This document shows positions 15,895-27,640 of a stretch of DNA of 64,000 bases, piece after piece. The stretch is from the NCBI GenBank assembly GCA_038064675.1, contig JBBTSM010000002.1, positions 6,507 through 70,506 on the forward strand, in the 5' to 3' direction. The position numbers were made by a program, and so were the translations under genes. Positions within the stretch are counted from its first letter, which is position 1. Each line of letters begins with the position of its first letter. The notes under the pieces were generated by a model. It had not been told where the DNA came from, searched no databases, and was given only the letters and a program-made list of their open reading frames with translations. The stretch is from Patescibacteria group bacterium (GTDB lineage Bacteria > Patescibacteriota > Patescibacteriia > UBA9934).

Positions 15895-15969
15895 GGCTCC
15901 ATCGTCTAATGGTTAGGACACGGGCTTTTCAAGCCTGTAACCGGGGTTCGACTCCCCGTGGAGTCACCA
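15895..15969 (+). tRNA. tRNA-Glu (anticodon UUC), CCA encoded
   Basis: A cloverleaf was folded by hand. The acceptor is GGCTCCA/TGGAGTC. The anticodon loop is TTTTCAA. The T-loop is GGTTCGACTCC. Confidence 0.8.
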
Positions 15970-17449
15970 AATGCGACTCACCCACAAGGTGAGCCGTTTT
16001 TGTTTGTAAGATAAGCGCTTTTTTGGCGGTTCCAAATTGTCCGTCTGCGAATGGCAAACCTTCGGGAAAAAGTAAGCTTTGGAACCGTAATTTATGGGTG
16101 AGTGAAAACGCTTCCCACGCAACGCGAGGGTTACGCATGATGTTGATACCGTACTCGACAACATGTCCGATTTCATCGGACGTGCGCGGGATTAGCACGA
16201 GCTCTTGCTCGCACTCGGTTATGGCCTTTTTCGTCTTTGCAACGAGGTCGCGGGTGGTATCATCGTCGAGTACTTGCGCGAAGTTTTTACGAGCAAAATG
16301 CTCCTGCTCACCTTTCAAAGAGAGGATTTGTTTCTCCAACTCCTGCCGCCGTTTTTCATTTGCCGTTCCCGCCGCCTTCCAATTTTCCTCAATCGCAATG
16401 CGCAGAAGAACAGCAAGCCCTTCGTCCATACACGACTGCTCCAAAATTGTCATAAATGCTTTTTCAATTTCCGCTTTCGCCACGTTTGACTTCGGGCAGA
16501 TGTTGCAGCGATAAAATGGGTAGCGCTGCCCGCTCCGTCCTTTTGATAGCGACGCGGTAAACCGATGGCCCTTCGGACAGGTAGCGAATCGTCGCAAAGG
16601 AAAATCAGCTCGTTGTTTTTGGTACTTCGGTGCGCATTTGTTCTGGCGAGCGAGTATCGCCTGCACGCGATCAAACAATTCTTCGCTCACAATTGGCTCA
16701 AACGTCCCTTTTACGGGTTTACCGTACTCCTTTGCGAACGCCCGAATGTAACCCTTGTATACGGGATTATGTAGGATTTTGTTCCAGTATTTTATGCAAA
16801 CAGATTTGCCGTTCAACCTCGTAAAGCCCTCTCCTGTGAGTACTGCGAGCGCTTCCGTTTGCGTATAGCCGTGCTCGACGAGCTCGAACCCGTGACGGAT
16901 ATGTCCTGCGTAGGGCTCATGTGGTGCGACAGTCGCCTTATTGAGTACACGCACCCGTATGAATCCAAGCGTCGGCCTCGAAATATACCTACCTTCTCCA
17001 ACGGCACTGACCATGCCATTACGCGATTTCAGTGCACGCAATTCATTATCGAGCTGCGCCATGCCAACGTACATGTTCTCAAAAAATCTTCCTTCTGGTG
17101 TGTCATCAGTGGGTTGGGTTACAGAAACACAGCGGACGCCCAATCGCTTGAAAAAAGCTCGCAGAACATGGAAATCGGCGCTGTCACGCGTGAAGCGCGA
17201 AAAGTCGTAGAAATATACGGTAGAAACCTCGTGCTTATGCGCCTCAACGTACTGCATCATCTTTCGAAGCTCGGTGCGGTCGATGGTTTTTGCGCTCTCA
17301 CCACGATCAATAAAAATACTTTCAGGAAGTACGGTTTCTCCCGCCGTAGTTGCTAATTTGCGACCCTCTTTTTCTTGAAAATCCAAACTCGTCCCTTTCT
17401 CGGCCTGACGAACGGTTGAGACGCGGTTATAGAGGACGGCAATTGGCAT
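15929..17449 (-). CDS. large serine recombinase (resolvase/invertase N-domain + recombinase/zinc-ribbon C-domain)
   Basis: The N-terminal catalytic region is AVLYNRVSTVRQ...GESAKT. It is about 506 aa. The last about 13 codons are encoded opposite the tRNA-Glu 3' half. Confidence 0.85.
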   Translation of the reverse strand: MPIAVLYNRVSTVRQAEKGTSLDFQEKEGRKLATTAGETVLPESIFIDRGESAKTIDRTELRKMMQYVEAHKHEVSTVYFYDFSRFTRDSADFHVLRAFFKRLGVRCVSVTQPTDDTPEGRFFENMYVGMAQLDNELRALKSRNGMVSAVGEGRYISRPTLGFIRVRVLNKATVAPHEPYAGHIRHGFELVEHGYTQTEALAVLTGEGFTRLNGKSVCIKYWNKILHNPVYKGYIRAFAKEYGKPVKGTFEPIVSEELFDRVQAILARQNKCAPKYQKQRADFPLRRFATCPKGHRFTASLSKGRSGQRYPFYRCNICPKSNVAKAEIEKAFMTILEQSCMDEGLAVLLRIAIEENWKAAGTANEKRRQELEKQILSLKGEQEHFARKNFAQVLDDDTTRDLVAKTKKAITECEQELVLIPRTSDEIGHVVEYGINIMRNPRVAWEAFSLTHKLRFQSLLFPEGLPFADGQFGTAKKALILQTKTAHLVGESHLVTPRGVEPRLQA

Positions 17450-17472
17450 AGCTGTTTTGCGAAACGAACTTA

Positions 17473-17985
17473 TTATATCGTTCTGCGGCCATTACGAAGC
17501 TCCCGCAACTCACGCATAGCGCGGAGCATACGGTTCTCCACGTTCGTCTCGTATCGTGCGTAGATGCCGTACAGGCGTTCCATTGCCTCCGCTCCTACCT
17601 TTGGGGTGTATCCCGCACGTTCGACGACTTCCTCGCTCCACACCAACTCCTCGAATCCTGAAAAACCCTCCTTTGTTTTCGTGACGACAACACGGGGATC
17701 GAGGACGGACTGCACGAACTCACGCTCCGCCTTGGTGATGCGATTGAGTTTCACATAATGCACAGCGATGCGTTCGAGTAGGATGCTTTCCAGTGCGTTT
17801 TGTGGGGAGAACTCGACCCGAAGCTCGGTGAGTACGCCGAGCTCCGCATCCTTCTCATATTCGGTAAGTGTATCGCGCAACATGCCGTGTGTCGTCGCGT
17901 TATAGCGCGTCGCGGCCTTGCCTTCATCGGTTTGCGGGCCTCCGCCGTGCGTGGCCTGTTGTTTGTTATTGTCCATATACTTCAA
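17473..17985 (-). CDS. hypothetical protein (island cargo)
   Basis: The ORF is 170 aa and co-oriented. No motif was recognised. Confidence 0.4.
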   Translation of the reverse strand: MKYMDNNKQQATHGGGPQTDEGKAATRYNATTHGMLRDTLTEYEKDAELGVLTELRVEFSPQNALESILLERIAVHYVKLNRITKAEREFVQSVLDPRVVVTKTKEGFSGFEELVWSEEVVERAGYTPKVGAEAMERLYGIYARYETNVENRMLRAMRELRELRNGRRTI

Positions 17986-18231
17986 TGAAAAGTTTTGCGA
18001 AGCGGTTCACCTCGGCGGTGATGTTGTCGCGCGTATCCTCGTCTCTAATTTCCAAACGGTCGAACTCCTTACGGAGTTTGGCCTTCAAGGCCTCGTGCTC
18101 GACCATATCCAAATGCGGCGACTGTGCGCCACATTCGGTTCAAGGAGCTCTCGATGCCGAATGACAAAAGTTGTTTATTTATTATGGCTGCACACGTCGA
18201 GGATCTCTCGATCACGCATAGCCATACTGCC

Positions 18232-19068
18232 TTACGCTTTCTGTACTATCTCGCTCTCACACGTCACCATTTTTCCGCCCTGTACGAATATCGTAACCTT
18301 TTGATAATCGTGCGCCTTGATCGCATCGGTGATGTCTTTGGGGGACAGATCGCCGCGCTCTCGCTTCGTTCCTCGAAACGTAGTCACGTTGCCGTTCTTC
18401 AAGGCCACTTCTATCTTCTCGAAGTCACCAGAACGCATTACTTCAAGCACGTCTTTTTCTTCCTTACTCACGCTTCCTCCGCCAAGGAGCACTTCGCTGC
18501 ACACTTTGAACATTGGGCCGTAGTCGATGGAACCCTTCGTTCCGAGTTTGCCAAGGAGCTCGTTGACGAACTCGTGCAAGTTGATGCAAGTGAATGATTT
18601 TCCGCCCATGCCGCCGTAAAGGTTGATGGACACGGGATCGTAAAAATCCGCGCCAAGGTCTGGGGAGTATTTCAGGATGATGGGGATGCCGAGGAATGCA
18701 TAGCCGATTGCCTTTGCCGACAATCCCCTCGGCTCGGCAACAATGCCGCCCATTCGTGGGATACCTTCGTCCTTTTCTCCTTTGAAAAATGCTTTGTAAA
18801 GCGGGAGAAGCTGTTTGTTTGTAAATCCGTTTCGTTTGAGCTCCTGTGTTACAGCAAGGAAAATAAGCTCATTGAAAGAAAACTTGCGCCATTTGCCCTC
18901 GTCCTCCTGCGCGTCGAGGATGCCGTCTTTGCTCAAAAGGTGGATCTGCCGATAGGTGAGCGACGTATCGGAAACCCGAAAGTTTGGTTTGTTGATGAAC
19001 TCCAAGATATTCATTTTGGCGTCCATTCGTATCAAGTTGAGTTCTGCTGCATCGGAAAAATAGAGCAT
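18232..19068 (-). CDS. hypothetical protein (island cargo)
   Basis: The ORF is 278 aa. No motif was recognised. Confidence 0.4.
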   Translation of the reverse strand: MLYFSDAAELNLIRMDAKMNILEFINKPNFRVSDTSLTYRQIHLLSKDGILDAQEDEGKWRKFSFNELIFLAVTQELKRNGFTNKQLLPLYKAFFKGEKDEGIPRMGGIVAEPRGLSAKAIGYAFLGIPIILKYSPDLGADFYDPVSINLYGGMGGKSFTCINLHEFVNELLGKLGTKGSIDYGPMFKVCSEVLLGGGSVSKEEKDVLEVMRSGDFEKIEVALKNGNVTTFRGTKRERGDLSPKDITDAIKAHDYQKVTIFVQGGKMVTCESEIVQKA

Positions 19069-19201
19069 ATCGCTCTGTAGTGTAGCACTATGAATCGAAC
19101 GAGCAAGTTCGTTTTATGCACAGCACTTGAAATAGAACACACCCGCCGAGACGCAGGTACACGACGGGCGTGTTCCTTTGTCTCGTACGGGTGTACGAGT
19201 G

Positions 19202-19738
19202 CTACCGCTGCGGTTCGCCGCGATAGCTACGGCGGTGATCTTCCTCGCAGGACCGCGCCTCCGCCTCGCTGGCGCACGCGAAGGCGTAGCTATCGCCCCG
19301 CAGGTCGGTAGGGCCACCTCCGACTTTGACCCTGAACGGCGCGGGGTTGTTACCGCGGTAGAGGGAGACGAAGCCGAACTTGTCCGCCATCTCCTCACTG
19401 ACCGTGACCCAGTTCCTGCCGCATTCGACGATCCACGCCTTCGTCTCCTCGACGAGGGCGAGAGCGCCATCGCGGGTCTTGGTGCTGTAGTGCCCTTGCA
19501 ACCGCATGCCGTCCCCAGTCCTGATCTCGATGCGATAGATCTCCAACGGCGCGTACTGCCCGCCGCTGATCGAGAGGATCGCGGCGCTGACGATCTGCTT
19601 CTTGGAGCGAGGACAGGTGGCGGGCGGGTTCTCCATCATCAGGGTGAAGTGGTGGGTGTGTCCCTGAAAGAAGAAGAGATCGCCGATCAGATCGCTCTTG
19701 CTCGGTCCCGCGATGATGCGGAACGTTGTGGTAGCCAT
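19202..19738 (-). CDS. hypothetical protein in GC-rich patch
   Basis: The patch is about 62% GC against a 50% background. The minus-strand ORF has a balanced composition. The overlapping plus ORF is Arg/Ala/Leu-rich and looks antisense. Confidence 0.35.
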   Translation of the reverse strand: MATTTFRIIAGPSKSDLIGDLFFFQGHTHHFTLMMENPPATCPRSKKQIVSAAILSISGGQYAPLEIYRIEIRTGDGMRLQGHYSTKTRDGALALVEETKAWIVECGRNWVTVSEEMADKFGFVSLYRGNNPAPFRVKVGGGPTDLRGDSYAFACASEAEARSCEEDHRRSYRGEPQR

Positions 19739-19958
19739 AACGGCTCCTTCTGTGTTGAACACCTTCGTCGTTGAGAGTGAAGGTAAGCTCCGTTACGCCG
19801 CATCGCTGCCGCGCCACCTGACCATAACGGACAGGGATTTTCGAGCGTGTGCCCGTCGGCAGCCACGACTTTCGTCATGCTCACCGAAGGACACAGCTCC
19901 ACTATAACGTCATATTATACCAGAAAATGGATACTTTGTCAATAAAATATCTCGTAAA

Positions 19959-19978
19959 TACGGCTAGTATTAGCCGTA
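19959..19978. repeat. perfect inverted repeat TACGGCTA-gtat-TAGCCGTA just downstream of recombinase 2
   Basis: Read from the sequence. Confidence 0.35.
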
Positions 19979-19997
19979 TAATCTTCCGCACCTCTGC

Positions 19998-21665
19998 TTA
20001 TACAAATACCCGTGTTTCACCCCTTATTGGTAGTACTATACGCCCGCATATTGGGGTTTTCTTGCCTCCATTCCGATGGCATATAGCTGTTTTAGCTCTC
20101 CCACGAGCTGGTTCCAAAACTCTACCGATTGGCTCACCAAAAGCTTCTCCGTCGAATATGACGGGGATGTTTTTGTTATGGACGAATTCTTTGCAGAGAT
20201 AATCAAGCGGAGCATTGAGAATGGCCTTGTAAAGTTTGCCGTCGCGCACGATGAGGTCTTTGAAGACGATGGCGAGGATCTGACGCTTCAACGGCTCAGG
20301 AGCCCGTTTGTAGGCCTTAGGGAGATCACGAATGAACGCCACTGCTCGCTCCAGAATTTGAATGGCCGATTGGATCATTGTTTGGTTCGCCTCCAGCCGC
20401 GCTTTGCAGCGAGCCCGATCGGAAGAAACTTCTTCACGGATGGTTTCGTAAATTTCCTCACTGAGTTTATTTTCCAGATACTTGTTCACGAGCGCCCGCT
20501 CTTTAGCGTCCAGCTCTTCAATCTTTCGCGTAAGCTCCCGACGCTCTTTCGTCACGGACGTCTGTTCTCGCTCGTGGATTTCTTGCAGCTTCTTCTCAAT
20601 GCGCCCAACGATGCGTGCGGGCAAACGCACCACTTTCAACGCTTTCAAAACTTCGCCCTCCAGCTGGGTCGTTTCAACGTAGGACTGCGAGCAGAAGACG
20701 GGGTGACCTTCCCGTTTCTTGGAGCAGCGGTAATAAGAAATTACTCGACCCGAGGAAGTCGTCTGTTTTTCGTAAGTAATACCACCGCCACACTCCCCAC
20801 AAATCATAATCCCGCGAAGCAGAAAAGCGTTCTTTCGTTTCTTGCTGCGTCCATGCACTCGATCTTCCAAAGCAAACTGGACGCGCTGAAAAAGTTCTCG
20901 GGAAATGAGAGGCACGTGCGATCCCTTCGCTTCAACGCCATTCCAGCGGATGGAACCGATGTAGAAGGGATTTTTGAGCATGCGGCAGATAACCGAACCG
21001 GATAGCGGCTTATCGACACGCCCCTGCCGAATGCCCTGCGAGTAGAGCCACTTGGTCAACTCGATCGCTGTGTATTGTCCGGTCGCAAACATTTCAAAGA
21101 CCTTTACCGCAAGGTCGCGCGTCTTCGGATCGGGGGCGACATACTTTCTTTCGATGCCGTCGGAGTCGATCTCCTTCACGTTTTTGTAGCCAAATCCAGC
21201 TTTGGTATTCCAAAGTCCCTGCTGGGCACGCTGGTTCATGCCCTTGAGCACGTCTCGGCCAAGGTTGAGTGACTGGTACTCCGCCATTGCAGCAAGAATG
21301 CCCTCTGTGAATTTTCCCTCCGGTGTCTCGTCGATGTTTTCCGTGGCAGAAATGAGCTTGATCTTCTTTTTGCGGAGAGTTCCGACAATGGCCGCATGGT
21401 CGATGGTGTTACGCGCAAGACGGCTGACTTGGTGAACGTATACCGCGTCGATACCGCCCTGTCTGCAGCGATCTAATAGCGCCTGAAGACCCGGCCGAGC
21501 GTCAGTACGCGCAGATTCTCCCTCGTCACGAAATATGTGCCCAATCTCGTAGCCATCAGCGGCGGCACGCGTTTTGCAGACCTCCTCCTGCGCGGGCAAG
21601 GAAAATCCCCGCTCGGCTTGCCGGTCGGTTGAAACACGTAAATAGAGAAGTGCTATTTTACTCAT
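19998..21665 (-). CDS. large serine recombinase (second copy, different sequence)
   Basis: It has ALLYLRVSTDRQ...GESART... and is 555 aa. Confidence 0.85.
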   Translation of the reverse strand: MSKIALLYLRVSTDRQAERGFSLPAQEEVCKTRAAADGYEIGHIFRDEGESARTDARPGLQALLDRCRQGGIDAVYVHQVSRLARNTIDHAAIVGTLRKKKIKLISATENIDETPEGKFTEGILAAMAEYQSLNLGRDVLKGMNQRAQQGLWNTKAGFGYKNVKEIDSDGIERKYVAPDPKTRDLAVKVFEMFATGQYTAIELTKWLYSQGIRQGRVDKPLSGSVICRMLKNPFYIGSIRWNGVEAKGSHVPLISRELFQRVQFALEDRVHGRSKKRKNAFLLRGIMICGECGGGITYEKQTTSSGRVISYYRCSKKREGHPVFCSQSYVETTQLEGEVLKALKVVRLPARIVGRIEKKLQEIHEREQTSVTKERRELTRKIEELDAKERALVNKYLENKLSEEIYETIREEVSSDRARCKARLEANQTMIQSAIQILERAVAFIRDLPKAYKRAPEPLKRQILAIVFKDLIVRDGKLYKAILNAPLDYLCKEFVHNKNIPVIFDGEAFGEPIGRVLEPARGRAKTAICHRNGGKKTPICGRIVLPIRGETRVFV

Positions 21666-21714
21666 ACGTTATTGGGTGAATTATGCGGTTATTTTTGAAT
21701 TCACGAAAGCCACG

Positions 21715-21840
21715 TTTTTCACTGCGGAAATTCCCGAGAAATCACTGCATAATCTCCGGCCATTTCACTCCAAAAATCACTGGAAGAATGTCCTTTCGAC
21801 AAAAAGAAAATCGCATAAGTAAGCCATGAAAATCACTTTT
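21715..21840. repeat. iteron-like direct repeats (A/T)AATCACT(G) x3 plus two TTTCACT variants upstream of recombinase 2
   Basis: AAATCACTG is at 21739. AAATCACTG is at 21774. AAATCACTT is at 21829. TTTCACTG is at 21718. TTTCACTC is at 21763. Confidence 0.4.
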
Positions 21841-21865
21841 CCCCTTATCCAACTTTCTGGAGTTT

Positions 21866-22459
21866 TCAATCAGGAGTTTCTGCAGTGCCCGCAGAAAAGT
21901 TTCCGCAGTCCCGAGTGTCGGTTATTGCGGCACGTCGTGCCTCGGCTCCTATGAGATTTTTATAGGTGAATTTTTCATCATCCCCGCCTCCATATGCGAC
22001 CCATCGCTTCTGATGGGGGACAAAAAGAATCACCTTGCCGTCAGGGAGAGCTTTTGCCGGATCCTTTCCAAAACGTAAACCTCCTTTGTTTACATATTTC
22101 TTATTCACTACATCTTGTTTGTATTCGCCCTGCCGAAGGGGAGGTACTCGCTCACCCGAATACCCCCCTTCGCCCTGCCGAATGGGTGTATGAGGAAAAA
22201 CATATCGGTTCACATGACCGGCTGTACGGGCCACACTCAGCCACCCTGCCTTTTCTAGCTTTATGACTGACTCGTAGAGGCATGTGAGGCCAATTTTATT
22301 CTTCGTCTTCTTGCGGAGTGCTGCATTGGAAGGATTGCATTGCCCAGTTCTGCCATTACGAAAAGATTGCAAAACCCCATATACCCAGTAATCTCGAAAG
22401 CTGAGATCTGGGTCGAGGGCTATGCCGTGAGGGTTCATTGAAAATCCTTTATTCTCCAT
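21866..22459 (-). CDS. hypothetical protein (island cargo)
   Basis: The ORF is 197 aa. No motif was recognised. Confidence 0.35.
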   Translation of the reverse strand: MENKGFSMNPHGIALDPDLSFRDYWVYGVLQSFRNGRTGQCNPSNAALRKKTKNKIGLTCLYESVIKLEKAGWLSVARTAGHVNRYVFPHTPIRQGEGGYSGERVPPLRQGEYKQDVVNKKYVNKGGLRFGKDPAKALPDGKVILFVPHQKRWVAYGGGDDEKFTYKNLIGAEARRAAITDTRDCGNFSAGTAETPD

Positions 22460-22469
22460 ATTCTTCTGC

Positions 22470-22742
22470 TCAAATTCCGTCGTAGAGGATGGACTTCAAC
22501 CGCTTAATCGCATTTACAAATGCAGGAGCGTGAACCAGCGCGTCGTGCCCAAGAGTAAACTCATTAGTCAGACGTCTTACATCGCCATCGTCCGCAAAAA
22601 TAAACGTCGCTCGGCTACCGTCTCGCTCGCAGTTCACGATGCGCTTACCGTGGGCAAGGAGATATGCCGCGAGGTAAAAATTACTCGTTGGAAACTCCAC
22701 GATCTCTGTTTTCATACGTATTCTGATCCGGCTGCCGTGCAA
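22470..22742 (-). CDS. small hypothetical protein (island cargo)
   Basis: The ORF is about 80-90 aa. Its true start is probably MKTEIVEF. Confidence 0.35.
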   Translation of the reverse strand: MHGSRIRIRMKTEIVEFPTSNFYLAAYLLAHGKRIVNCERDGSRATFIFADDGDVRRLTNEFTLGHDALVHAPAFVNAIKRLKSILYDGI

Positions 22743-22820
22743 TCAAATAAAGCGCCTCGGCGAGTTGCTCGATGAGCTGGTCTTCGGCGCTTTGTTGTGC
22801 GGCATCTGGCTTGAACATAA

Positions 22821-22844
22821 GGGCTACTCAACAAAGAGTAGCCC
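22821..22844 (-). terminator. hairpin downstream of the 22881..23576 gene
   Basis: GGGCTACTC-aacaaa-GAGTAGCCC. Confidence 0.4.
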
Positions 22845-22880
22845 TATGCCTCCTATGACTGGTTTCACCAATTCACGAAA

Positions 22881-23576
22881 TTAGTGAAACCGCTTTTTTG
22901 CACGATGTTTTTGCAGCTTTATGCGTTTGACCTCGGCATCCTCCTTTGCCTTTGAAGGAAATTCGTCGTCTACGTTCATCTGGGCGGCGATGTCGCGATT
23001 GGTTTTGATCATTGCTATCGGTTCGCCCGTATCGCTGTCGATGCCGTTGATGACGCCCTTTTGATGATGTAGCTTGAGAACTTTGGCATTTTCTTCGGCA
23101 TTGGGTCGACTTCTTGGGCTTTTATGCCCCATAGCTTCGTGAATGTCTTTTACGAGCTTATCACGCAGGCGCTTCTCTCCAGTTGCGAGTGGCATATCTT
23201 CAGCGTGTTCAATACGTTTTGAACCGGCGGTGATAGTGACGGAAAAGTTTCCCGGAATATGGCGGATCTTATTTAGCACGAGAAAATACCGCACTGCATC
23301 GTGATAGTTTTCAGCGAGCTTTAACTTCTCCAGCATGACGCGGATAGCGCATTTCAGTTCCATGTGCCGACGCGCTACATCGGCCATTGGGATTCCGTCT
23401 GGGCGAAGCCAAACGGCAGCGGCTGGTGCCGTTTCAAAACCCTCAGCGGGTATGCCAATACTCGTGCGCAGCTTCTGTGCAATCGCATCTCCATTACAGT
23501 AAGCCAACCGCTCAACAAAACGTTGGCGGTTTATTTCCGTGGCCTTTTCAGCCAATTCTAAATCCTTATTCTTCAT
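22881..23576 (-). CDS. hypothetical protein (island cargo)
   Basis: The ORF is 231 aa. It has a basic C-terminus. Confidence 0.4.
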   Translation of the reverse strand: MKNKDLELAEKATEINRQRFVERLAYCNGDAIAQKLRTSIGIPAEGFETAPAAAVWLRPDGIPMADVARRHMELKCAIRVMLEKLKLAENYHDAVRYFLVLNKIRHIPGNFSVTITAGSKRIEHAEDMPLATGEKRLRDKLVKDIHEAMGHKSPRSRPNAEENAKVLKLHHQKGVINGIDSDTGEPIAMIKTNRDIAAQMNVDDEFPSKAKEDAEVKRIKLQKHRAKKRFH

Positions 23577-23661
23577 ATTCTCGCCCTTGCTTACCAGTGT
23601 AATTCCTGTAAACTATCCTTACAATCTGCCTAAACCGGCTTCGGCCGGCATGGCACTAAAT

Positions 23662-23813
23662 CCACGCAAATAGAGACGGTCTCGTGACCGGCCCATTTGC
23701 GTGGTTCGTATTCGAAAGAATACGAGGCGGCTCCGAAAGGTGTCCGTCGCCGGCTCGCGGAACCTTTTGTGTTCCGCGACCCCAAGAAAATAATTCGTAA
23801 AACCACGCAAATA
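23662..23813. promoter_or_regulatory. three copies of CACGCAAAT(A) motif (two direct, one inverted) in divergent intergenic region
   Basis: CCACGCAAATA is at 23662. The inverted copy ATTTGCGTGG is at 23695. CCACGCAAATA is at 23803 and overlaps the ATG of the downstream ORF. Confidence 0.4.
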
Positions 23814-24313
23814 TGTCAGACGCAACGAGACCGATCTACCGAATGTGGTGGTTCTGGGTCGCGGCAGTGTTCGTTTTTCTAATGATCGTCGGCGCGATGT
23901 CGGGTGGATCCACGCCAACCAACGACAGCACGTCACAAGAGGCCACAACCCCGATAGTGAACGGCGAGCATTTGCTCGGGTTGACGATTGACGAGGTGCG
24001 CGAGGAGATGGGAATCCCTGATGACGAGAGCACCATGGACCCGACCGCGCAGCAGCTAGCGCTTGGTGGCACGAGTACGTGGACGAACCAGTACACGGTC
24101 AGCGATCACACTATCGTGCTCGATTTCGATATGAAGTCGCGGCAGGTCACCGGCTTCTTCATTGGCACCGACGAGAAAGACGGGATTACGCGCGACTGGA
24201 AGGCACTGCTCCCGCTTAGTGGTCTTTCTGAGGACGCGCAGGGATACTCCATCAAGCCAATCGGTGCGCTCAAGAGTCCCGGCTTCTACACCGGAGTGCA
24301 GGCGACGGAATAG
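23813..24313 (+). CDS. membrane-anchored hypothetical protein
   Basis: One N-terminal TM (WWFWVAAVFVFLMIVGA) is followed by a soluble domain. Confidence 0.4.
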   Translation: MSDATRPIYRMWWFWVAAVFVFLMIVGAMSGGSTPTNDSTSQEATTPIVNGEHLLGLTIDEVREEMGIPDDESTMDPTAQQLALGGTSTWTNQYTVSDHTIVLDFDMKSRQVTGFFIGTDEKDGITRDWKALLPLSGLSEDAQGYSIKPIGALKSPGFYTGVQATE

Positions 24314-24333
24314 TGAAAACACTGCTTAAATCC

Positions 24334-25767
24334 CTACATGATCAAGTGATCAAATTTGGCTTTTAACTTTTCAAATAATGCCTGATCTCCACCCTGTTGC
24401 TTAGCTTTAACAAGCTCAAAAACATCCTCATCATCAAGCGGAATCATAAACCCGCGGTCATCAACCGCAGTATCCTTGCAACGCTGCAAAAGGAGAGTTT
24501 TGTTTTCAATTTTTCTACAAACAAGAAAACCAAACTTTCCCCGACTAGGACCAAACCGGCCAGACAGTTGGTCGATCTCTGGATTGGCCGGATCGTCCGA
24601 ATAGTTTTTACATTCAACAAAAACCATTTGAGCGGGGTAGTGACTACCAAGCCAGTGAAAGAATCCGTTACTCATCACATTAACATAGCTGATGTCGATT
24701 CTCTTTCTACCGCTGTGGAGCTCGTGCTGAACATGTGGGTTGGTGAGTGCAGGATAAAATAAGGCCGAAAGCAAAGCTTCTATGGCTTTTTCGTACCGAT
24801 CTGCTTCCGCATTGCCGACCTGTGTCTGTTGTACCTCGCCGATTAGAGCATCCCAGTCCGGCAAAACTGATCCTTCAATAGCGGCAAGCTCAGAATGACT
24901 CAATGGAGGCGAAATATGTCGCTTCACTTCTTCTCGATACCGTTTCAGGATCGCGGGGTTCCTCAGAGTTTCCCGCGCGTTTACTGCCTTGCCAAACCCA
25001 TATTTTTCTTTTACCGATTTTTTGGTGACTCTTACACCACCCTTTTTAAGTACCTGTACCAATGAAGAGTTGGCAGAGATTTCTTCACGTTGCAGGTGTG
25101 GAATGATGTAATCGCGAAAATACTTATCAGGATTGTAGTTCAAGTCCTGACGTACAATCCCTTTTGGCACAAGAAGAAGCCGACCATCGTTCACCGTTGG
25201 TAGCCGAGCGTATTCAACTTTCCATGAACGACTCGCAGGATCCCACAATGGGCCAGAAACCACGTCGTCCGTAAGGGGTATTCCGTAAGTTTCGCACATT
25301 TCCTGTGTGTAGCGAATCAGGAAAGGCCTAATAAGGTTCGTTGTTATGTCGGAGACGATGTCAACGTCAATTCCAGGTACCATCAAAACGGTTTCTTCGA
25401 GATCTTCCAATAACCCTGTTTTAGCCGCTTCACTTTTGCTTAAAGCATCCCAAACAGTTCCCGCTAAAAGGTTGCCCATCCCTCGGCCGTGCGAAACTCC
25501 AACCGAAAGCCCAAGATGTGTTTCATTAGGTTCCCCCAGTGAAGAAAGCAAGCGCCTTGCGTTTTCATGATCACCGCTCTGGATAGAAGAAATGACGGCC
25601 TTAAAAAAGTTCTGGATGATGGAGATGCACTCGCTTGCCCATACCGAGGAGAGGAGCTTCAAAGAAAGCGGGTCAACAAAAAGAGGGGTGTCATTGACGA
25701 CATCCACGTCCACGAAATCAAGGGTTGGTTGACTTCGACCTAAAGAAAAATGCTCAGAAATTCTCAT
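24334..25767 (-). CDS. PD-(D/E)xK nuclease-fold protein (C-terminal), unknown N-terminal domain; defence candidate
   Basis: The C-terminal GRKRIDISYVN...QMVFVECKNYS...EIDQLSGR matches the D...(E)xK core arrangement of restriction-endonuclease-like folds. Confidence 0.45.
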   Translation of the reverse strand: MRISEHFSLGRSQPTLDFVDVDVVNDTPLFVDPLSLKLLSSVWASECISIIQNFFKAVISSIQSGDHENARRLLSSLGEPNETHLGLSVGVSHGRGMGNLLAGTVWDALSKSEAAKTGLLEDLEETVLMVPGIDVDIVSDITTNLIRPFLIRYTQEMCETYGIPLTDDVVSGPLWDPASRSWKVEYARLPTVNDGRLLLVPKGIVRQDLNYNPDKYFRDYIIPHLQREEISANSSLVQVLKKGGVRVTKKSVKEKYGFGKAVNARETLRNPAILKRYREEVKRHISPPLSHSELAAIEGSVLPDWDALIGEVQQTQVGNAEADRYEKAIEALLSALFYPALTNPHVQHELHSGRKRIDISYVNVMSNGFFHWLGSHYPAQMVFVECKNYSDDPANPEIDQLSGRFGPSRGKFGFLVCRKIENKTLLLQRCKDTAVDDRGFMIPLDDEDVFELVKAKQQGGDQALFEKLKAKFDHLIM

Positions 25768-25814
25768 GCTTATTCTTAGTTCGGCGAACCTAGTTTTTTG
25801 GGAATCCGCAGTCC

Positions 25815-26648
25815 CTACGCTTGCGGAGGTTGGTACCCCAGCTTATAGAGCGCTCCATTGAGCGACCCCTTATGCCCCGCAATTTTTTCTTGCCAAGCTT
25901 TTATCAGGGAATCATCTAAAGATTTCATGAACTCAGTGCGGATTTGTTCGTTCCCCCACTCGACATAATTGAGAATCTTTTCTTCAGTTAGATTGGAAAA
26001 GATCTTTGATCTCGCGTAGACAAAGAGTGGCCCATCGTTCGCGGAAATCGCTCCTCTCGCGCTATTGAAAGTTCTAATTTTGCCTCGTAGCTCTAGGTCT
26101 ATTTGGCTCCCTTTGGCTAGCGCCTCGTCAGCAATCTTTTTGAACTCCAAAAGGCGATAGAGAAGCATCGAGTCGCTGGGCTCTGCGGCCTTTGTGATGT
26201 TCTCAATATGCTTCAGTACAAGATTATAAACTCGGTTAATCGGCGTTCCGTGAAGATAGAAGGTGGCCCCTTCACTTTCGTCCATGACCCATGGCGTGGC
26301 TCCTTTGCTCAACTCCATCTGGAATTCTGGCTCGAAGACGGACTTAATCCAGCTATGTGCTTCTCTAGCGGCTCTAATTCTTTCGACGTTAACGGCGAAG
26401 AGATGTTGAATAAGAATCATTGCCAAGGAGACGAACAGGGTGACGAATCCGGCACCAATCAACTCGATAATCAAGGATTCTCGAAAGGAGCTTGAAAGTG
26501 ACGTCCCTCTTCCAAGGAAGTAGACGATTGTCGTTAAAAACAAAACGAATCCAACGATCAGTAAAGTGATTTTTGTTTTCTCTCCAACTTTCATAGCAGC
26601 TTTACTCAAAACTGCCTTTATTCTCTCATAAAATCTAGGAAATTTCAA
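25815..26648 (-). CDS. 2-TM membrane protein with cytoplasmic C-terminal domain (partner of the nuclease-fold gene)
   Basis: Two hydrophobic helices lie within residues 26-82. It is co-oriented with and 47 bp upstream of 24334..25767. Confidence 0.45.
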   Translation of the reverse strand: MKFPRFYERIKAVLSKAAMKVGEKTKITLLIVGFVLFLTTIVYFLGRGTSLSSSFRESLIIELIGAGFVTLFVSLAMILIQHLFAVNVERIRAAREAHSWIKSVFEPEFQMELSKGATPWVMDESEGATFYLHGTPINRVYNLVLKHIENITKAAEPSDSMLLYRLLEFKKIADEALAKGSQIDLELRGKIRTFNSARGAISANDGPLFVYARSKIFSNLTEEKILNYVEWGNEQIRTEFMKSLDDSLIKAWQEKIAGHKGSLNGALYKLGYQPPQA

Positions 26649-26790
26649 TCATGGGTGCGTTGTGTTAACAACAAACCCCGCGTCGAGAACGACACGAGCG
26701 CGCCGTCCTCGAGGGGAGCGGGGCTTGTCGTCTCACGCGGGGCGAGAGAAGGGTACGCGTTGTCACACTGCACCCGAGGTGCGAGGCCGA

Positions 26791-27312
26791 TCACCACACG
26801 TTCGCGTCTCGCATGGCGGCGATCTGGTCGCGGAGGCCTTCGTTGTTGCTGGCCGCGATGATGCGCTCGACCAGCTCGTCGTCCATCAGGCCGAGCTCCC
26901 TCGCCGCGAGCACGCACACGGCCTCGTCCTCCTCCTCGCTGAACCCGGAGAAGGAGAAGATCATGTCGTCCGCGAGGGCGATCGCGCCGCCGTAGGCGCG
27001 GTCACGCTTGTCGGGCGCGGTCACGTCGCGGGTCTGGAAGCTGGAGACGTGGTCGGGGTGGCGCGACAGGCGCTCGGCCTTCTCGAGGGCGTGGTGGGCG
27101 TACTTGCGCACCTGCTCCCCGGAGGGGCGACGCACCTCGAAGCAGATGACGCACGGGATCTCCCCGCGTCGCCAGTAGGCGAAGAAGCCGCCCGTACGGG
27201 TACGGTCACGGATCGCGACGAGAGGGCCGATGCGTCCTGCGGCGTGGAGAACGGCGAGATCGAGCCGTCCTGCGGCTTCGGAACGGGAACAGGCGCGGAG
27301 AGGGAGTTCCAA
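26791..27312 (-). CDS. hypothetical protein in GC-rich patch
   Basis: The patch is about 65% GC. The minus ORF is more protein-like than the overlapping plus ORFs. Confidence 0.35.
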   Translation of the reverse strand: MELPLRACSRSEAAGRLDLAVLHAAGRIGPLVAIRDRTRTGGFFAYWRRGEIPCVICFEVRRPSGEQVRKYAHHALEKAERLSRHPDHVSSFQTRDVTAPDKRDRAYGGAIALADDMIFSFSGFSEEEDEAVCVLAARELGLMDDELVERIIAASNNEGLRDQIAAMRDANVW

Positions 27313-27499
27313 GAGTCCTCCAGAATCGGAAGAGGGTGGATGCCATTCGCCCCAAGACAGGGCTATTGCGAGCGCAAGTTAGCAAAAAGTCGCCGTTTTG
27401 TCTACACGACGATAGCAAGGGAATCAAAATTAAACCGCAGCAGCAGGAGCTTTTCCTTGTTTTTCAGGAGGTATTCGGTTAACGATGCTTTAGGTTCAC

Positions 27500-27537
27500 C
27501 ACAAGAAAACCACCCTTTATTGGGTGGTTTTCTTGTG
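27500..27537. terminator. 16-bp perfect palindrome CACAAGAAAACCACCC-tttatt-GGGTGGTTTTCTTGTG (bidirectional terminator-like; near island right edge)
   Basis: Read from the sequence. Confidence 0.45.
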
Positions 27538-27640
27538 TGTATAAAGGATAAAACCGATCGTGTTAGGGGACTCTAAAAGCAATAGCTCCTTTAAACATTT
27601 GTCCATTTATCCACCGTGCTCATTGGTGTGGTTTGGTAGG

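Follow-up and report, generated by a model that had tools for sequence, protein, structure and literature searches.

The analysed window, a 64,000-nucleotide stretch of DNA from a Patescibacteria group bacterium, carries a tRNA-Glu(UUC) gene whose 3' end is overlapped antisense over 41 nt by the ORF of a large serine recombinase (LSR1), with a C-terminus ending in HLVTPRGVEPRLQA before the stop codon (Table 1). A second large serine recombinase, LSR2, lies further on. Pfam recognised Resolvase (9e-24) and Recombinase (PF07508, 2e-09) domains in LSR1, and Resolvase (9e-35), Recombinase (PF07508, 8e-13) and Zn_ribbon_recom (PF13408, 1e-11) in LSR2. For LSR1 no zinc ribbon was matched in Pfam, but cysteines occur in the pattern CP...C..C, and PF13408 is found in many homologs. 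In recombinase alignments R9, S11 and Q15 are invariant or nearly so. An earlier note, made from the sequence alone, had reported the overlap of about 41 nt with a 506-aa recombinase, a second and different recombinase of 555 aa, and core genes from about 27.6 kb onwards. The overlap was confirmed from ARAGORN, Rfam and Pfam results, the two recombinases share 27% protein identity, and TrmB-like, sod, tsaD and tsaE genes were identified beyond the island. Both recombinase ORFs, for which the earlier note had considered degeneration, are intact.

Genes carried by the island

The island consists of a tandem pair, element 1 at ~15972-20133 (4.2 kb) and element 2 at ~20142-27495 (7.4 kb). Both have backbone genes that recur in related elements, and in element 2 these form an operon of a 197-aa gene (weak matches to HTH_36 and to replication initiators), a DUF5659 gene (22470-22742), a 45-aa gene and a 231-aa gene (22881-23576). 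Divergent from this operon is a LOOT RNA, which was found in 16 related elements, on the island side every time. The two GC-rich patches noticed earlier correspond to the 186-aa and 173-aa cargo ORFs; the former gave no Pfam, PADLOC, PHROG or significant Rfam match, and the latter no family or Rfam match. Likewise, the 277-aa protein next to the PDC-M36A protein had no family match in Pfam, PADLOC or PHROG. The earlier description of all cargo as hypothetical did not hold, as Rfam, PADLOC and PHROG matches exist for some of it.

Table 1. Features of the tRNA-Glu island, with positions in the window.
Feature	Position	Strand	Evidence or remark
tRNA-Glu(UUC), integration target	15895..15969	+	ARAGORN tRNA-Glu(ttc) call; Rfam tRNA 63 bits
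LSR1, integrated-state form, 506 aa	15929..17449	-	last ~12 codons (below ~15964) are antisense host tRNA
att core copy 1 TCACCAAA, attL of element 1	15964..15971	+	identical 8-mer at 20134; L117 homology begins here
tRNA terminator hairpin and T-run borne by element 1, antisense in LSR1 coding end	15977..16003	+	terminator scan; dG -15.1, z -3.8
Element 1 backbone gene, 170 aa	17473..17985	-	adjoins LSR in 9 related loci, 30-62% identity
Element 1 backbone gene, 278 aa, weakly MerR/HTH-like	18232..19068	-	in 12 related loci including circular L107; weak MerR_1 match
Element 1 cargo ORF, 186 aa, first GC-rich patch	19202..19762	-	GC3 = 0.83 on this strand
Detached LSR1 C-terminal exon, 31 codons and stop, SQSVEFWNQLVGELKQLYAIGMEARKPQYAGV	20036..20133	-	in-frame rejoining; tail HMM 14.9 bits
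att core copy 2 TCACCAAA, attR of element 1 and attL of element 2	20134..20141	+	8-mer repeat
LSR2 body, 510 aa	20134..21665	-	annotated 555-aa ORF 19998..21665 adds 45 read-through codons from element 1 far end
tRNA terminator hairpin borne by element 2, antisense in LSR2 coding end	20146..20177	+	terminator scan; dG -20.7, z -3.7
Element 2 backbone operon	21866..23576	-	same module in L113-L116
LOOT RNA (Rfam RF03000)	23627..23744	+	73.6 bits vs gathering score 46.4
Cargo membrane protein, 166 aa, weakly superinfection-exclusion-like	23813..24313	+	phrog_8545, 9e-06
Cargo candidate defence protein, 477 aa	24334..25767	-	PADLOC PDC-M36A 1.8e-42; phrog_27295 5e-138; Pfam DUF8370
Cargo membrane protein, 277 aa	25815..26648	-	65%-identical homolog in L113 element, beside other cargo
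Cargo ORF, 173 aa, second GC-rich patch	26791..27312	-	GC3 = 0.88
Predicted detached LSR2 3' end, PKASLTEYLLKNKEKLLLLRFNFDSLAIVV and stop	27402..27495	-	in-frame rejoining gives 541 aa
att core copy 3 TCACCA, attR of element 2, island right boundary	27496..27501	+	L114 far end analogous
Native tRNA-Glu terminator hairpin, now 11.5 kb from tRNA	27500..27537	+	16-bp perfect inverted repeat; dG -29.6, z -7.1

Att cores and element boundaries

Three copies of the tRNA acceptor end bound the two elements (TCACCAAA, TCACCAAA and TCACCA), and each of them has a terminator hairpin after it. A hairpin equivalent to that of element 1 is present in relatives, and that of element 2 is found immediately 3' of tRNA-Glu in the related loci L113-L116. 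The host/element boundary was located by alignment with L117, a relative of element 1 (84-86% identical DNA) that resides at a tRNA-Glu(CTC) of a different host in an unrelated genomic context. Homology begins exactly at TCACCAAATGCG; left of TCACC the L117 tRNA, being the CTC isoacceptor, differs, while the element side is highly similar. The tRNA-Glu(UUC) body is thus host-derived, and its last few nucleotides and CCA fall in the recombination core. At the other side of the island, the far core of element 2 is short (6 nt only); in L114, the corresponding far end shows a tRNA repeat of 21 nt and then a similar trailer beginning with CACAAAGAAA.

The att cores and element boundaries bear out the integrative island with two different recombinases that had been proposed at this tRNA. 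The earlier note had found no distal copy of the tRNA 3' end, which is correct for a long copy within the window but overlooked the short acceptor-end repeats at 20134 and 27496. It had expected short att cores for serine recombinases, in line with the 8-nt and 6-nt repeats, and its approximate right boundary near 27.5 kb could be narrowed to 27496-27501, with the native tRNA terminator next to it. Of the nested or tandem arrangement that it had left open, the tandem one applies, with element 1 between the tRNA and a probably older element 2. The 555-aa ORF of the second recombinase does exist, but its last 45 codons are read-through into the far end of element 1.

In tyrosine-integrase islands of the standard type (PMC4383910), a tRNA 3'-half copy belongs to the element, which encloses the entire recombinase ORF, and a displaced tRNA fragment lies at the far end. 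Identity blocks of 16-21 nt in some relatives would fit such a design. It is nevertheless highly improbable here and already contradicted, as the window holds no second 3'-half copy, the identity blocks are just 8 and 6 nt, and the L117 tRNA mismatches left of TCACC next to a highly similar element side. Furthermore, across 23 attL/attR pairs the stretch common to all identity blocks is tRNA positions ~71-73 only, which sets an upper bound on the crossover position.

We also considered that ~15972-27495 is one composite element that moves as a unit with two recombinases acting together. The protein P0126 shares 62-65% identity with LSR2 and, like LSR2 in the window, runs on into the far end of an LSR1-type element; the pairing of LSR1 and LSR2 types therefore recurs. 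On the other hand, LSR2-type elements occur alone directly at tRNA-Glu (L113-L116), and LSR1-type elements occur alone as islands of ~5 kb (L006, L008) and at the tRNA of another host (L117/L118). Each element type comes with a separate set of backbone genes, such sites often hold tandem arrays (L055, L034, L009), and excision as a unit would leave LSR1 with a 3-codon junk end. A composite element is consequently very unlikely.

Recombinase genes probably split at the core

The att core of each element lies inside its recombinase gene, and therefore integration cuts the gene; the 41-nt overlap with the tRNA arises because the core falls inside the recombinase ORF. When the LSR1 ORF was rejoined across the core, an in-frame protein of 527 aa was obtained, with FWNQLVGELKQLYAIG in its terminal part and the core ~31-32 codons upstream of the excised-state stop codon. 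The detached exon also holds an attP-type P arm with the T-loop mimic GGTTCCA, at the 5-bp motif offset described below. It sits within the apparent tail of LSR2, and this position follows from the insertion of element 1 at the junction of the tRNA with element 2.

For LSR2, fusing the body to the tRNA gave a protein of 529 aa ending in AFGDSTGSRTPVTGLKSPCPNH, which matches in length and sequence the relative P0273 (530 aa, ending in AFGDPTGSRTPVTSLKSSCPNH). Its predicted detached end no more than loosely resembles the short P0275 and P0121 ends, and the ends after the core are short and poorly conserved in this subfamily.

Taken together, we favour two independent small integrative elements in tandem at the tRNA-Glu 3' end, each with the core inside its recombinase ORF and cut on integration (probability about 0.85). 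The observations behind this reading are the att cores and boundaries, the conserved in-frame tail of LSR1, the half-site geometry of attB and attP, and full-length relatives that are circular. Each LSR gene lies at the tRNA-proximal edge of its own element and is transcribed toward the tRNA, and the recombination core takes in the discriminator and CCA together with the final acceptor-stem bases. In the proposed mechanism, integration would keep the tRNA body intact, the element donating the extreme 3' end and a terminator hairpin, and would move the last recombinase codons to the far end of the element. The LSR1 body would then stay by the tRNA and read antisense tRNA to a stop in the anticodon loop, producing the 41-nt overlap. 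Element 2 probably came first, followed by element 1 at the regenerated tRNA/element-2 junction. In a locus without elements, tRNA-Glu would be expected to precede CAAGAAAACCACCC and then the TrmB-like gene.

The split layout across the family

The layout of element 1, in which integration detaches a conserved recombinase tail, occurs across many bacterial phyla, in no fewer than 560 species-representative genomes. The tRNA-antisense peptide forms the protein end in 83 of 117 full-length homologs; the ORF stop lies inside the antisense tRNA in 52 of 80 related genomic loci, and about 8 more overlap a tRNA. At tRNA-Glu loci the overlap was 41 nt without exception. As regards chance, a 13-codon open stretch alone is not improbable, and the fixed register in the 52 of 80 relatives is the significant part. 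Direct repeats of the tRNA acceptor end are present at the far ends of related islands. Among 19 scored pairs, 16, with that of the window among them, have a GGTTC motif whose distance from the core is 5 bp greater in the P arm than in the tRNA arm. This agrees with the published offset of the zinc-ribbon-domain (ZD) motif, which lies 5 bp nearer the centre of the site in attB than in attP (PMC3783163).

Rejoining the ORF across the core restored a tail of the form xxWNQ[ILFV]xx[EW]L... in many lineages. An HMM of this tail, built from uninterrupted proteins only, gave 13 matches of at least 8 bits, all on the island side and the LSR strand, while the opposite strand and the host side reached at most 2.1 bits; the LSR1 exon ranked third (14.9 bits, against at most 2.1 bits in controls). 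An in-frame tail was present at the island far end in about 27 of 54 loci and in none of the controls, and about half of the loci had no tail within 10 kb. Uninterrupted homologs were found on tRNA-free contigs of 5.6-10.3 kb. They include the circular relatives L107, L108 and L109, whose contig ends overlap by 30, 24 and 17 nt, and the conserved tail is present in circular excised relatives.

In the population of the window, all samples and assemblies show the integrated state only. No empty site or excised circle of either element was found, all public contigs of the population being identical to the window; the reconstructed excised-state proteins were absent from a collection of 15 billion proteins, and a search for a genome closely related to that of the host found none. 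The exclusively integrated state would suit elements that are fixed, immobile remnants in this lineage, with recombinase genes that persist only through recent insertion, as would the 45-codon junk tail of LSR2 and the loss of its direct tRNA junction. We regard this as rather unlikely, since the bodies and the detached ends of the two recombinases have all stayed intact and in frame, another host carries a close variant of element 1, and there are circular relatives.

Comparison with known systems

The recombinases resemble A118/LI Int, TP901-1, phiC31, Bxb1 and SPbeta SprA in having a resolvase catalytic domain, a recombinase domain, a zinc ribbon with coiled-coil insertion and short att sites, and share with phage and ICE large serine integrases an attB half-site motif that is shifted 5 bp towards the centre relative to attP. 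Unlike in those integrases, the target here is the extreme tRNA 3' end, attP lies within the recombinase ORF and the enzyme loses a conserved C-terminal helix upon integration. Similarity to solved LSRs was weak (best E = 7e-09, in the catalytic domain), and no recombination directionality factor (RDF) was identified in the present elements.

The attB of the myxophage Mx8 likewise lies at a tRNA gene. According to the account in PMC4701971, the Mx8 integrase, a tyrosine recombinase, has attP inside its gene; integration swaps its C-terminal 112 aa for 13 aa, and the prophage form is reportedly less active. Going by this account, the att core inside the integrase ORF and the altered C-terminus are as in the present LSRs, whereas the enzyme belongs to an unrelated family with another mechanism, and the portion of the protein that is replaced is far larger. 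Streptococcal ICE serine integrases at rumA have att in their own 3' end with direct repeats of 2-21 bp, and integration exchanges the 3' parts and thereby alters the integrase C-terminus (Ambroset et al. 2016, PMC4701971). That att lies within a serine integrase gene whose C-terminus changes on integration is as found here; however, the rumA target is protein-coding, and a conserved detachable tail, supply of a tRNA terminator or a family-wide survey is not described for it.

Serine integrases have been stated not to be known to target tRNA genes (PMC4383910). Islander-type tyrosine-integrase islands share with the present elements a tRNA target, a regenerated tRNA, a displaced fragment at the far end and tandem arrays (PMC4383910), but use another enzyme family, and the present elements duplicate only ~6-20 nt of the acceptor end. 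Compared by description, published LSR-bearing integrative elements beside tRNA genes, with tRNA-Glu prominent, resemble ours; tRNA targeting was proposed there from adjacency, with no att mapping, ORF/tRNA overlap or split gene. There are thus scattered precedents for tRNA targeting by LSRs and for att sites inside integrase genes, while the family-wide combination of a tRNA target, a split LSR gene and a detached tail appears undescribed in the searched literature.

Possible meaning of the detached tail

By analogy with the phage Mx8 integrase, the recombinase may exist as two isoforms, one with a tethered amphipathic helix in the excised state and one lacking it in the integrated state, with different activity or direction. 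We tentatively propose that the gene split on integration is a built-in directionality switch and that the orphan LOOT RNA is a functional component of Patescibacteria elements, both of which are possible though doubtful. The full-length LSR of the circular element would, through the tethered helix at its C-terminus, set attP x attB integration, and the tail-less LSR of the integrated element would have another competence, e.g. RDF-independent excision or enforced quiescence.

It is similarly conceivable, at a comparably modest likelihood, that the same architecture has no regulatory meaning: attP would overlap the gene 3' end for compactness, the tail being dispensable and constrained as P-arm DNA. 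The W-N-Q tail codons are the antisense of the P-arm GGTTCCA motif, and because the W-N codons coincide with this motif, part of the tail conservation is at the DNA level. In an AlphaFold2 model of the homolog P0013, with beta strands at 283-318 and then long helices at 343-418, the tail helix was undocked and of low confidence (pLDDT ~60), and the short, poorly conserved ends of the LSR2 subfamily point the same way. Against a dispensable tail, conservation with an amphipathic pattern reaches at least 14 codons past the half-site of ~25 bp, and codon differences beyond it show an excess of synonymous change (45 synonymous, 62 non-synonymous). Moreover, Bacteroidota homologs without a tRNA at the gene end carry the same tail, and the tail HMM matches in frame on the LSR strand only. 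If the proposed switch is true, a sizeable serine integrase family of many phyla would control the direction of recombination by the topology of its own gene, without a separate directionality factor.

Recombinase genes ending in tRNA genes

Based on comparison of the window with homologous proteins and related loci, we discovered two tandem elements at tRNA-Glu, together with their cores (shared repeats), the geometry of the half-sites, a split recombinase gene, a conserved tail of LSR1 (the recombinase of element 1) and circular relatives with the full-length gene. LSR1 and LSR2 (the recombinase of element 2) are only 27% identical, and both contain Pfam Resolvase and Recombinase domains, with Zn_ribbon_recom in addition in LSR2. 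The LSR1 ORF ends in ...HLVTPRGVEPRLQA and a stop; this peptide is read from the antisense strand of the acceptor stem, the T-arm and part of the anticodon arm. The earlier note had claimed that this ORF overlaps the 3' end of tRNA-Glu, and this was borne out, with the last 41 nt of the tRNA being overlapped.

Homologs of LSR1 (30-50% identity) mostly carry C-terminal peptides like LASPTGFEPVLPP, LVTPRGVEPRLQA and GPPGLEPGTSAL, which correspond to the antisense T-arm translated in one fixed register (83 of 117 full-length homologs). These entries, about 70% of the full-length proteins among public entries P0001-P0120, represent the integrated state, with 8-25 terminal residues translated from antisense tRNA; the deposited C-termini of the family are thereby misstated, which is a systematic annotation artefact. 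Relatives of LSR1 are encoded in at least 560 species-representative genomes, and the host range covers Patescibacteria, Saccharibacteria, Acidobacteriota, Verrucomicrobiota (including Akkermansia), Myxococcota, Nitrospira, Omnitrophota, Bacteroidota and others. For locus retrieval, a query alignment of 40 diverse homologs proved too divergent, and 12 more closely related ones were used instead. The ORF stop was located inside the antisense tRNA in 52 of the 80 loci fetched, and in about eight further loci the tRNA was overlapped but the ORF read through or its frame was broken. The overlap was always 41 nt for tRNA-Glu (TTC or CTC) in these 80 loci; further targets were tRNA-Ala, Lys, Val, Tyr, Arg, Ile, Leu and Asn. 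Some relatives were found on IMG/VR viral contigs, ending at tRNA-Arg, Ala or His.

Attachment sites and the tail of the split gene

In many loci the island side showed a direct repeat of the 3'-terminal 6-18 nt of the tRNA at a distance of 4-10 kb upstream; this far-end repeat was sometimes present in several copies, which points to tandem arrays. In L055 (Omnitrophota), L034 (an Akkermansia muciniphila MAG) and L009, at least three successive copies of core and tail exon were observed upstream of a single recombinase gene; as in the window, such copies represent either tandem arrays or what is left of several integrations into one tRNA. In 23 attL/attR pairs (the junctions of the integrated state), aligned in the recombinase frame, the identity blocks intersected only at tRNA positions ~71-73, the last acceptor-stem bases and the discriminator. 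Therefore, the tRNA body is host-derived, and its outermost 3' nucleotides and the trailer come from the element. The far end carries a T-loop mimic, ...CTGGTTCCAA..., on its element side, and in 16 of 19 scored pairs the distance from this mimic to the core exceeded that of GGTTC in the tRNA by exactly 5 bp; the three exceptions were pattern-matching artefacts and also showed 5 bp by eye. The published offset between the attB and attP motifs of serine integrases is 5 bp (PMC3783163), and the offset is independent evidence for genuine attachment sites of large serine recombinases. For LSR1, no convincing common motif was seen when the right-hand arms (P' and B') were checked by eye for symmetry. 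An 18-nt repeat at 3249 in L043 was rejected as far end, since it yields a 4-codon end and the true tail-bearing end lies ~200 nt away.

The core lies within the ORF. When the ORF was continued across the core into the sequence after the far-end copy, a conserved tail followed in frame: ...FWNQLVEELKQLHAIGFE in L009, ...DWNQVLAWLKQLESLKDL in L048, ...NWNQITSWLQEVKSF in L034 and, each with its stop, ...SWNQIINWLKEMETLRQVAA in L058, ...SWNQVDRWLRELLELQKAAVA in L071 and ...SWNQIVPWLSQLDGLRRAG in L074. The same tail forms the C-terminus of homologs without a tRNA at the gene end. An HMM of the tail, built from 11 uninterrupted proteins only, gave 13 matches scoring 8 bits or more on the recombinase strand of the island side, with controls reaching at most 2.1 bits on the opposite strand (0.50 M residues) and at most 1.0 bit on the host side (0.93 M residues); recognisable tails were present in about 27 of 54 loci. 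When codon differences among related tails were pooled for the part past the ~25-bp half-site, 45 were synonymous and 62 non-synonymous, which indicates that the constraint acts on the protein and not on the DNA alone.

In a Bacteroidota subgroup (Chitinophagaceae, Mucilaginibacter; L035, L040, L052, L054, L062, L063, L066, L079, L080 and L083) the gene ended without a tRNA, and the C-terminus was longer and uninterrupted with a related tail, even on chromosomes. As this subgroup keeps the tail without the tRNA, the tail seems to have belonged to the protein ancestrally, and the target or att position of these enzymes is a different one.

Three uninterrupted homologs were encoded on small contigs without tRNA and with overlapping termini, namely L107 (6,602 bp, overlap of 30 nt, which is k-1 for an assembler with k = 31), L108 (10,324 bp, 24 nt) and L109 (5,590 bp, 17 nt). 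These contigs are excised circles, with the full-length gene running through attP. The start of the recombinase gene on these contigs is overlapped by a small ORF (51-64 aa), which may encode an accessory or directionality factor. The AlphaFold2 model of P0013, the homolog from one of the circles, had a mean pLDDT of 88.7, with the core-encoded residues 490-501 as a low-confidence linker and the tail as a helix (501-515, pLDDT about 60). In this model the tail looks like a tethered amphipathic helix that is undocked in the monomer.

Order of insertion and boundaries in the window

The core TCACCAAA was present twice in the window, and a TCACCA copy was found further on. A second copy of the tRNA 3' half was absent, as a search allowing up to 3 mismatches in 29 nt gave none; the earlier note had likewise reported no second copy of the 3' end at the distal side. 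A decayed full-length tRNA remnant at 20066-20185 was rejected, because its gapped local alignment score of 37 was inside the shuffle range of 30-46; the actual signal there is the P arm and the 8-nt core.

Rejoined across the two cores, LSR1 has 527 aa and ends in ...GESHLVSQSVEFWNQLVGELKQLYAIGMEARKPQYAGV and a stop, and its tail was the third-best match to the tail HMM overall (14.9 bits). This tail sits in another frame within the apparent tail of LSR2, and therefore the last 45 codons of the annotated 555-aa ORF are read-through. The C-terminus of proteins closely related to LSR2 (59-66% identity) is ...FDGEAFGDPTGSRTPVTSLKSSCPNH followed by a stop, again antisense tRNA-Glu but read in a different frame. 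Fused directly to the tRNA of the window, the LSR2 body gave 529 aa ending in ...FDGEAFGDSTGSRTPVTGLKSPCPNH and a stop, which resembles the relative P0273 (530 aa), so element 2 once adjoined the tRNA and element 1 was inserted later into the junction. The tRNA arm is thus the critical half-site for LSR1, and the insertion of element 1 into the element 2 junction implies that this arm (T-arm and acceptor) alone would be enough as half-attB, with any right arm. P0273 had been suspected on contig L031 beside an LSR1-type gene, which on checking was not so. In P0126, a fragment 62-65% identical to LSR2, the reading frame likewise passes from an LSR2-type body to a far end of the LSR1 type (FGEPPSRNVEPHSRRAETALCSANRG...); another genome thus shows the two element types in the same tandem order. 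The geometry in the LSR2 subfamily is the same as that of LSR1, but a conserved tail was sought among LSR2 relatives and was not demonstrated.

A terminator-like hairpin on the tRNA strand follows each of the three core copies in the window, and hairpin 2 is kept directly after tRNA-Glu in L113-L116. At the far end of L114 a 21-nt tRNA-Glu repeat is followed by CACAAAGAAA... and a hairpin, much resembling the CACAAGAAAA... and hairpin of the window, and this likeness supports the right boundary. Recognisable core genes (TrmB-like, sod, tsaD) resume at ~27.6 kb, in agreement with the earlier note, and include tsaE as well. An element on L117/L118, from another groundwater project, is 84-86% identical to element 1 in DNA and 93% in protein, and is located at tRNA-Glu(CTC) in a gene context unrelated to the window. 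Its homology to the window starts exactly at TCACCAAATGCGACTCACC; this comparison fixes the left boundary and shows recent movement of element 1 between hosts.

The MAG that contains the window belongs to Patescibacteria and was obtained from groundwater at Hainich; public contigs of the same population were without exception identical to the window. Neither an excised form nor an empty site of its own two elements was found in public contigs or by protein look-up: the exact AI-2E transporter protein sought for the empty site was not on record, all contigs with the exact sod gene bore the island at 100% identity, and an exact look-up of four reconstructed junction-state proteins in a collection of 15 billion proteins gave none. 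A metagenome scan with LSR2 gave relatives of 26-29% identity only. The sequence of two short contigs, L004 and L005, which stem from other samples of this site, breaks off within the tRNA (window 15916 and 15912). These ends were rejected as an alternative junction, as the end of L004 is exactly one k = 55 word away from the tRNA/element junction; they probably reflect an assembly-graph branch at a tRNA common to several genomes.

Features of the two elements, reconstructed junctions, and LOOT RNA positions in related loci
Feature	Contig	Position	Strand	Details
tRNA-Glu(ttc)	window	15895-15969	+	Rfam tRNA, 63 bits
LSR1 ORF	window	15929-17449	-	506 aa
Core TCACCAAA	window	15964		tRNA end
Core TCACCAAA	window	20134		
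TCACCA copy	window	27496		
Element 1	window	~15972-20133		~4.2 kb; LSR1, 170-aa, 278-aa weakly MerR-like, GC3-rich 186-aa cargo ORF
Hairpin 1	window	15977-15993	+	inside LSR1 coding end; dG -15.1, z -3.8
GC-rich patch	window	19100-19800		
Promoter match	window	19914-19942	-	TTGACA, 17-nt spacer, TATAAT
LSR2 ORF	window	19998-21665	-	555 aa as annotated
LSR1 tail	window	20036-20133	-	
Element 2	window	~20142-27495		~7.4 kb; LSR2, conserved operon, LOOT RNA, variable cargo
Hairpin 2	window	20146-20167	+	inside LSR2 coding end; dG -20.7, z -3.7
LOOT RNA (RF03000)	window	23627-23744	+	73.6 bits; gathering score 46.4
477-aa protein	window	24334-25767	-	PADLOC PDC-M36A 1.8e-42; Pfam DUF8370; phrog_27295 5e-138
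277-aa protein	window	25815-26648	-	membrane protein
GC-rich patch	window	26650-27450		
Hairpin 3	window	27500-27537	+	native terminator; dG -29.6, z -7.1
attP1 (element 1 circle)				...CTACCGATTGGC-TCACCAAA-TGCGACTCACC...
attP2 (element 2 circle)				...GCTTTAGGT-TCACCA-AAAGCTTCTCC...
tRNA/element 2 junction				...GTGGAG-TCACCAAA-AGCTTCTCC...
Empty attB (host site)				...GTGGAG-TCACCA-CAAGAAAACCACCC...
LOOT RNA	L009	8680-8800		
LOOT RNA	L108	9072-9193		
LOOT RNA	L113	7551-7684		
LOOT RNA	L114	6458-6578		
LOOT RNA	L115	4053-4173		
LOOT RNA	L116	1150-1270		

Cargo and LOOT RNA

The backbone of element 1 is conserved, with the 170-aa gene in 9 related loci and the 278-aa gene in 12. The conserved operon of element 2 encodes a 197-aa weakly replication-initiator-like protein, DUF5659, and 45-aa and 231-aa products, and its cargo comprises a Sie-like 166-aa protein, the 477-aa PDC-M36A/DUF8370 candidate defence protein, the 277-aa membrane protein and a GC3-rich 173-aa ORF. 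At the same position, relatives carry other defence-like cargo, namely a KAP NTPase with a trypsin-like protease, SNase/NYN/DUF8371, DUF4145 or Hypoth_Ymh. The 477-aa and 277-aa genes had been put forward as a defence-like pair; this is only half supported, through the 477-aa candidate, as its neighbour had no match in PADLOC, PHROG or Pfam and the homolog of this neighbour in L113 accompanies the KAP NTPase and trypsin-like protease.

The two GC-rich patches are mutually unrelated, and gene callers disagree on their strand. Because their minus-strand GC3 is 0.83 and 0.88, they are best read as putative coding genes acquired from a GC-rich donor. As structured RNAs they were rejected, with no significant Rfam match (CrfA at 29 bits, below the gathering score of 38). 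A GC-rich patch was seen at the L114 far end too. A perfect sigma-70-type promoter match (12/12, extended -10 TG) was noted shortly after the stop codon of the LSR1 C-terminal exon, pointing towards the cargo ORF of element 1.

LOOT RNA was found in 16 related loci (the six in the table and L013, L018, L023, L024, L028, L030, L032, L037, L038 and L076), always on the island side and never on the host side; in 15 of 16 it lies on the strand opposite to the recombinase. In Patescibacteria and Saccharibacteria it recurs as a component of these elements, and in LSR2-type elements it lies between backbone operon and variable cargo. A function of LOOT RNA was not described in the literature searched.

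Discussion

By analogy with phage Mx8, the integrated and excised states would express two recombinase isoforms of different activity. According to PMC4701971, attP lies inside int of Mx8, integration replaces 112 residues by 13, and the prophage form of the integrase is less active. Mx8 is thus a precedent for isoform change by integration, although its enzyme is a tyrosine integrase. The same source describes streptococcal ICEs with att inside the serine integrase gene and an exchanged C-terminus, a feature shared with the LSR1 family, whereas their target is rumA.

According to a standard reference of 2015, serine integrases were not known to target tRNA genes (PMC4383910). Serine recombinases have been reported beside tRNA-Glu, Phe or Pro in Thermotogota proviruses, with tRNA targeting proposed, and large serine recombinases are present in 27 of 937 Prochlorococcus tycheposons and related cryptic elements. 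A broad family with the tRNA 3' end as target, a core in the ORF, a detached conserved helix and a supplied terminator was undescribed in the mostly non-subscription literature searched, and an earlier description may exist.

A large, phylogenetically broad serine-integrase family thus targets tRNA genes, now with mapped att sites, and tRNA-island tools built on tyrosine integrases alone will overlook these elements. The true C-terminus of truncated entries lies kilobases off, which affects annotation, phylogenies and mining of such recombinases for genome engineering; since integrated-state entries are truncated, an active integrase would need reconstruction across the att site. The orphan LOOT RNA gains a genomic context. 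As attB is the universal, highly conserved tRNA acceptor and T-arm, the enzymes could suit broad-host integration, and the split gene offers a testable hypothesis of direction control without a separate directionality factor.
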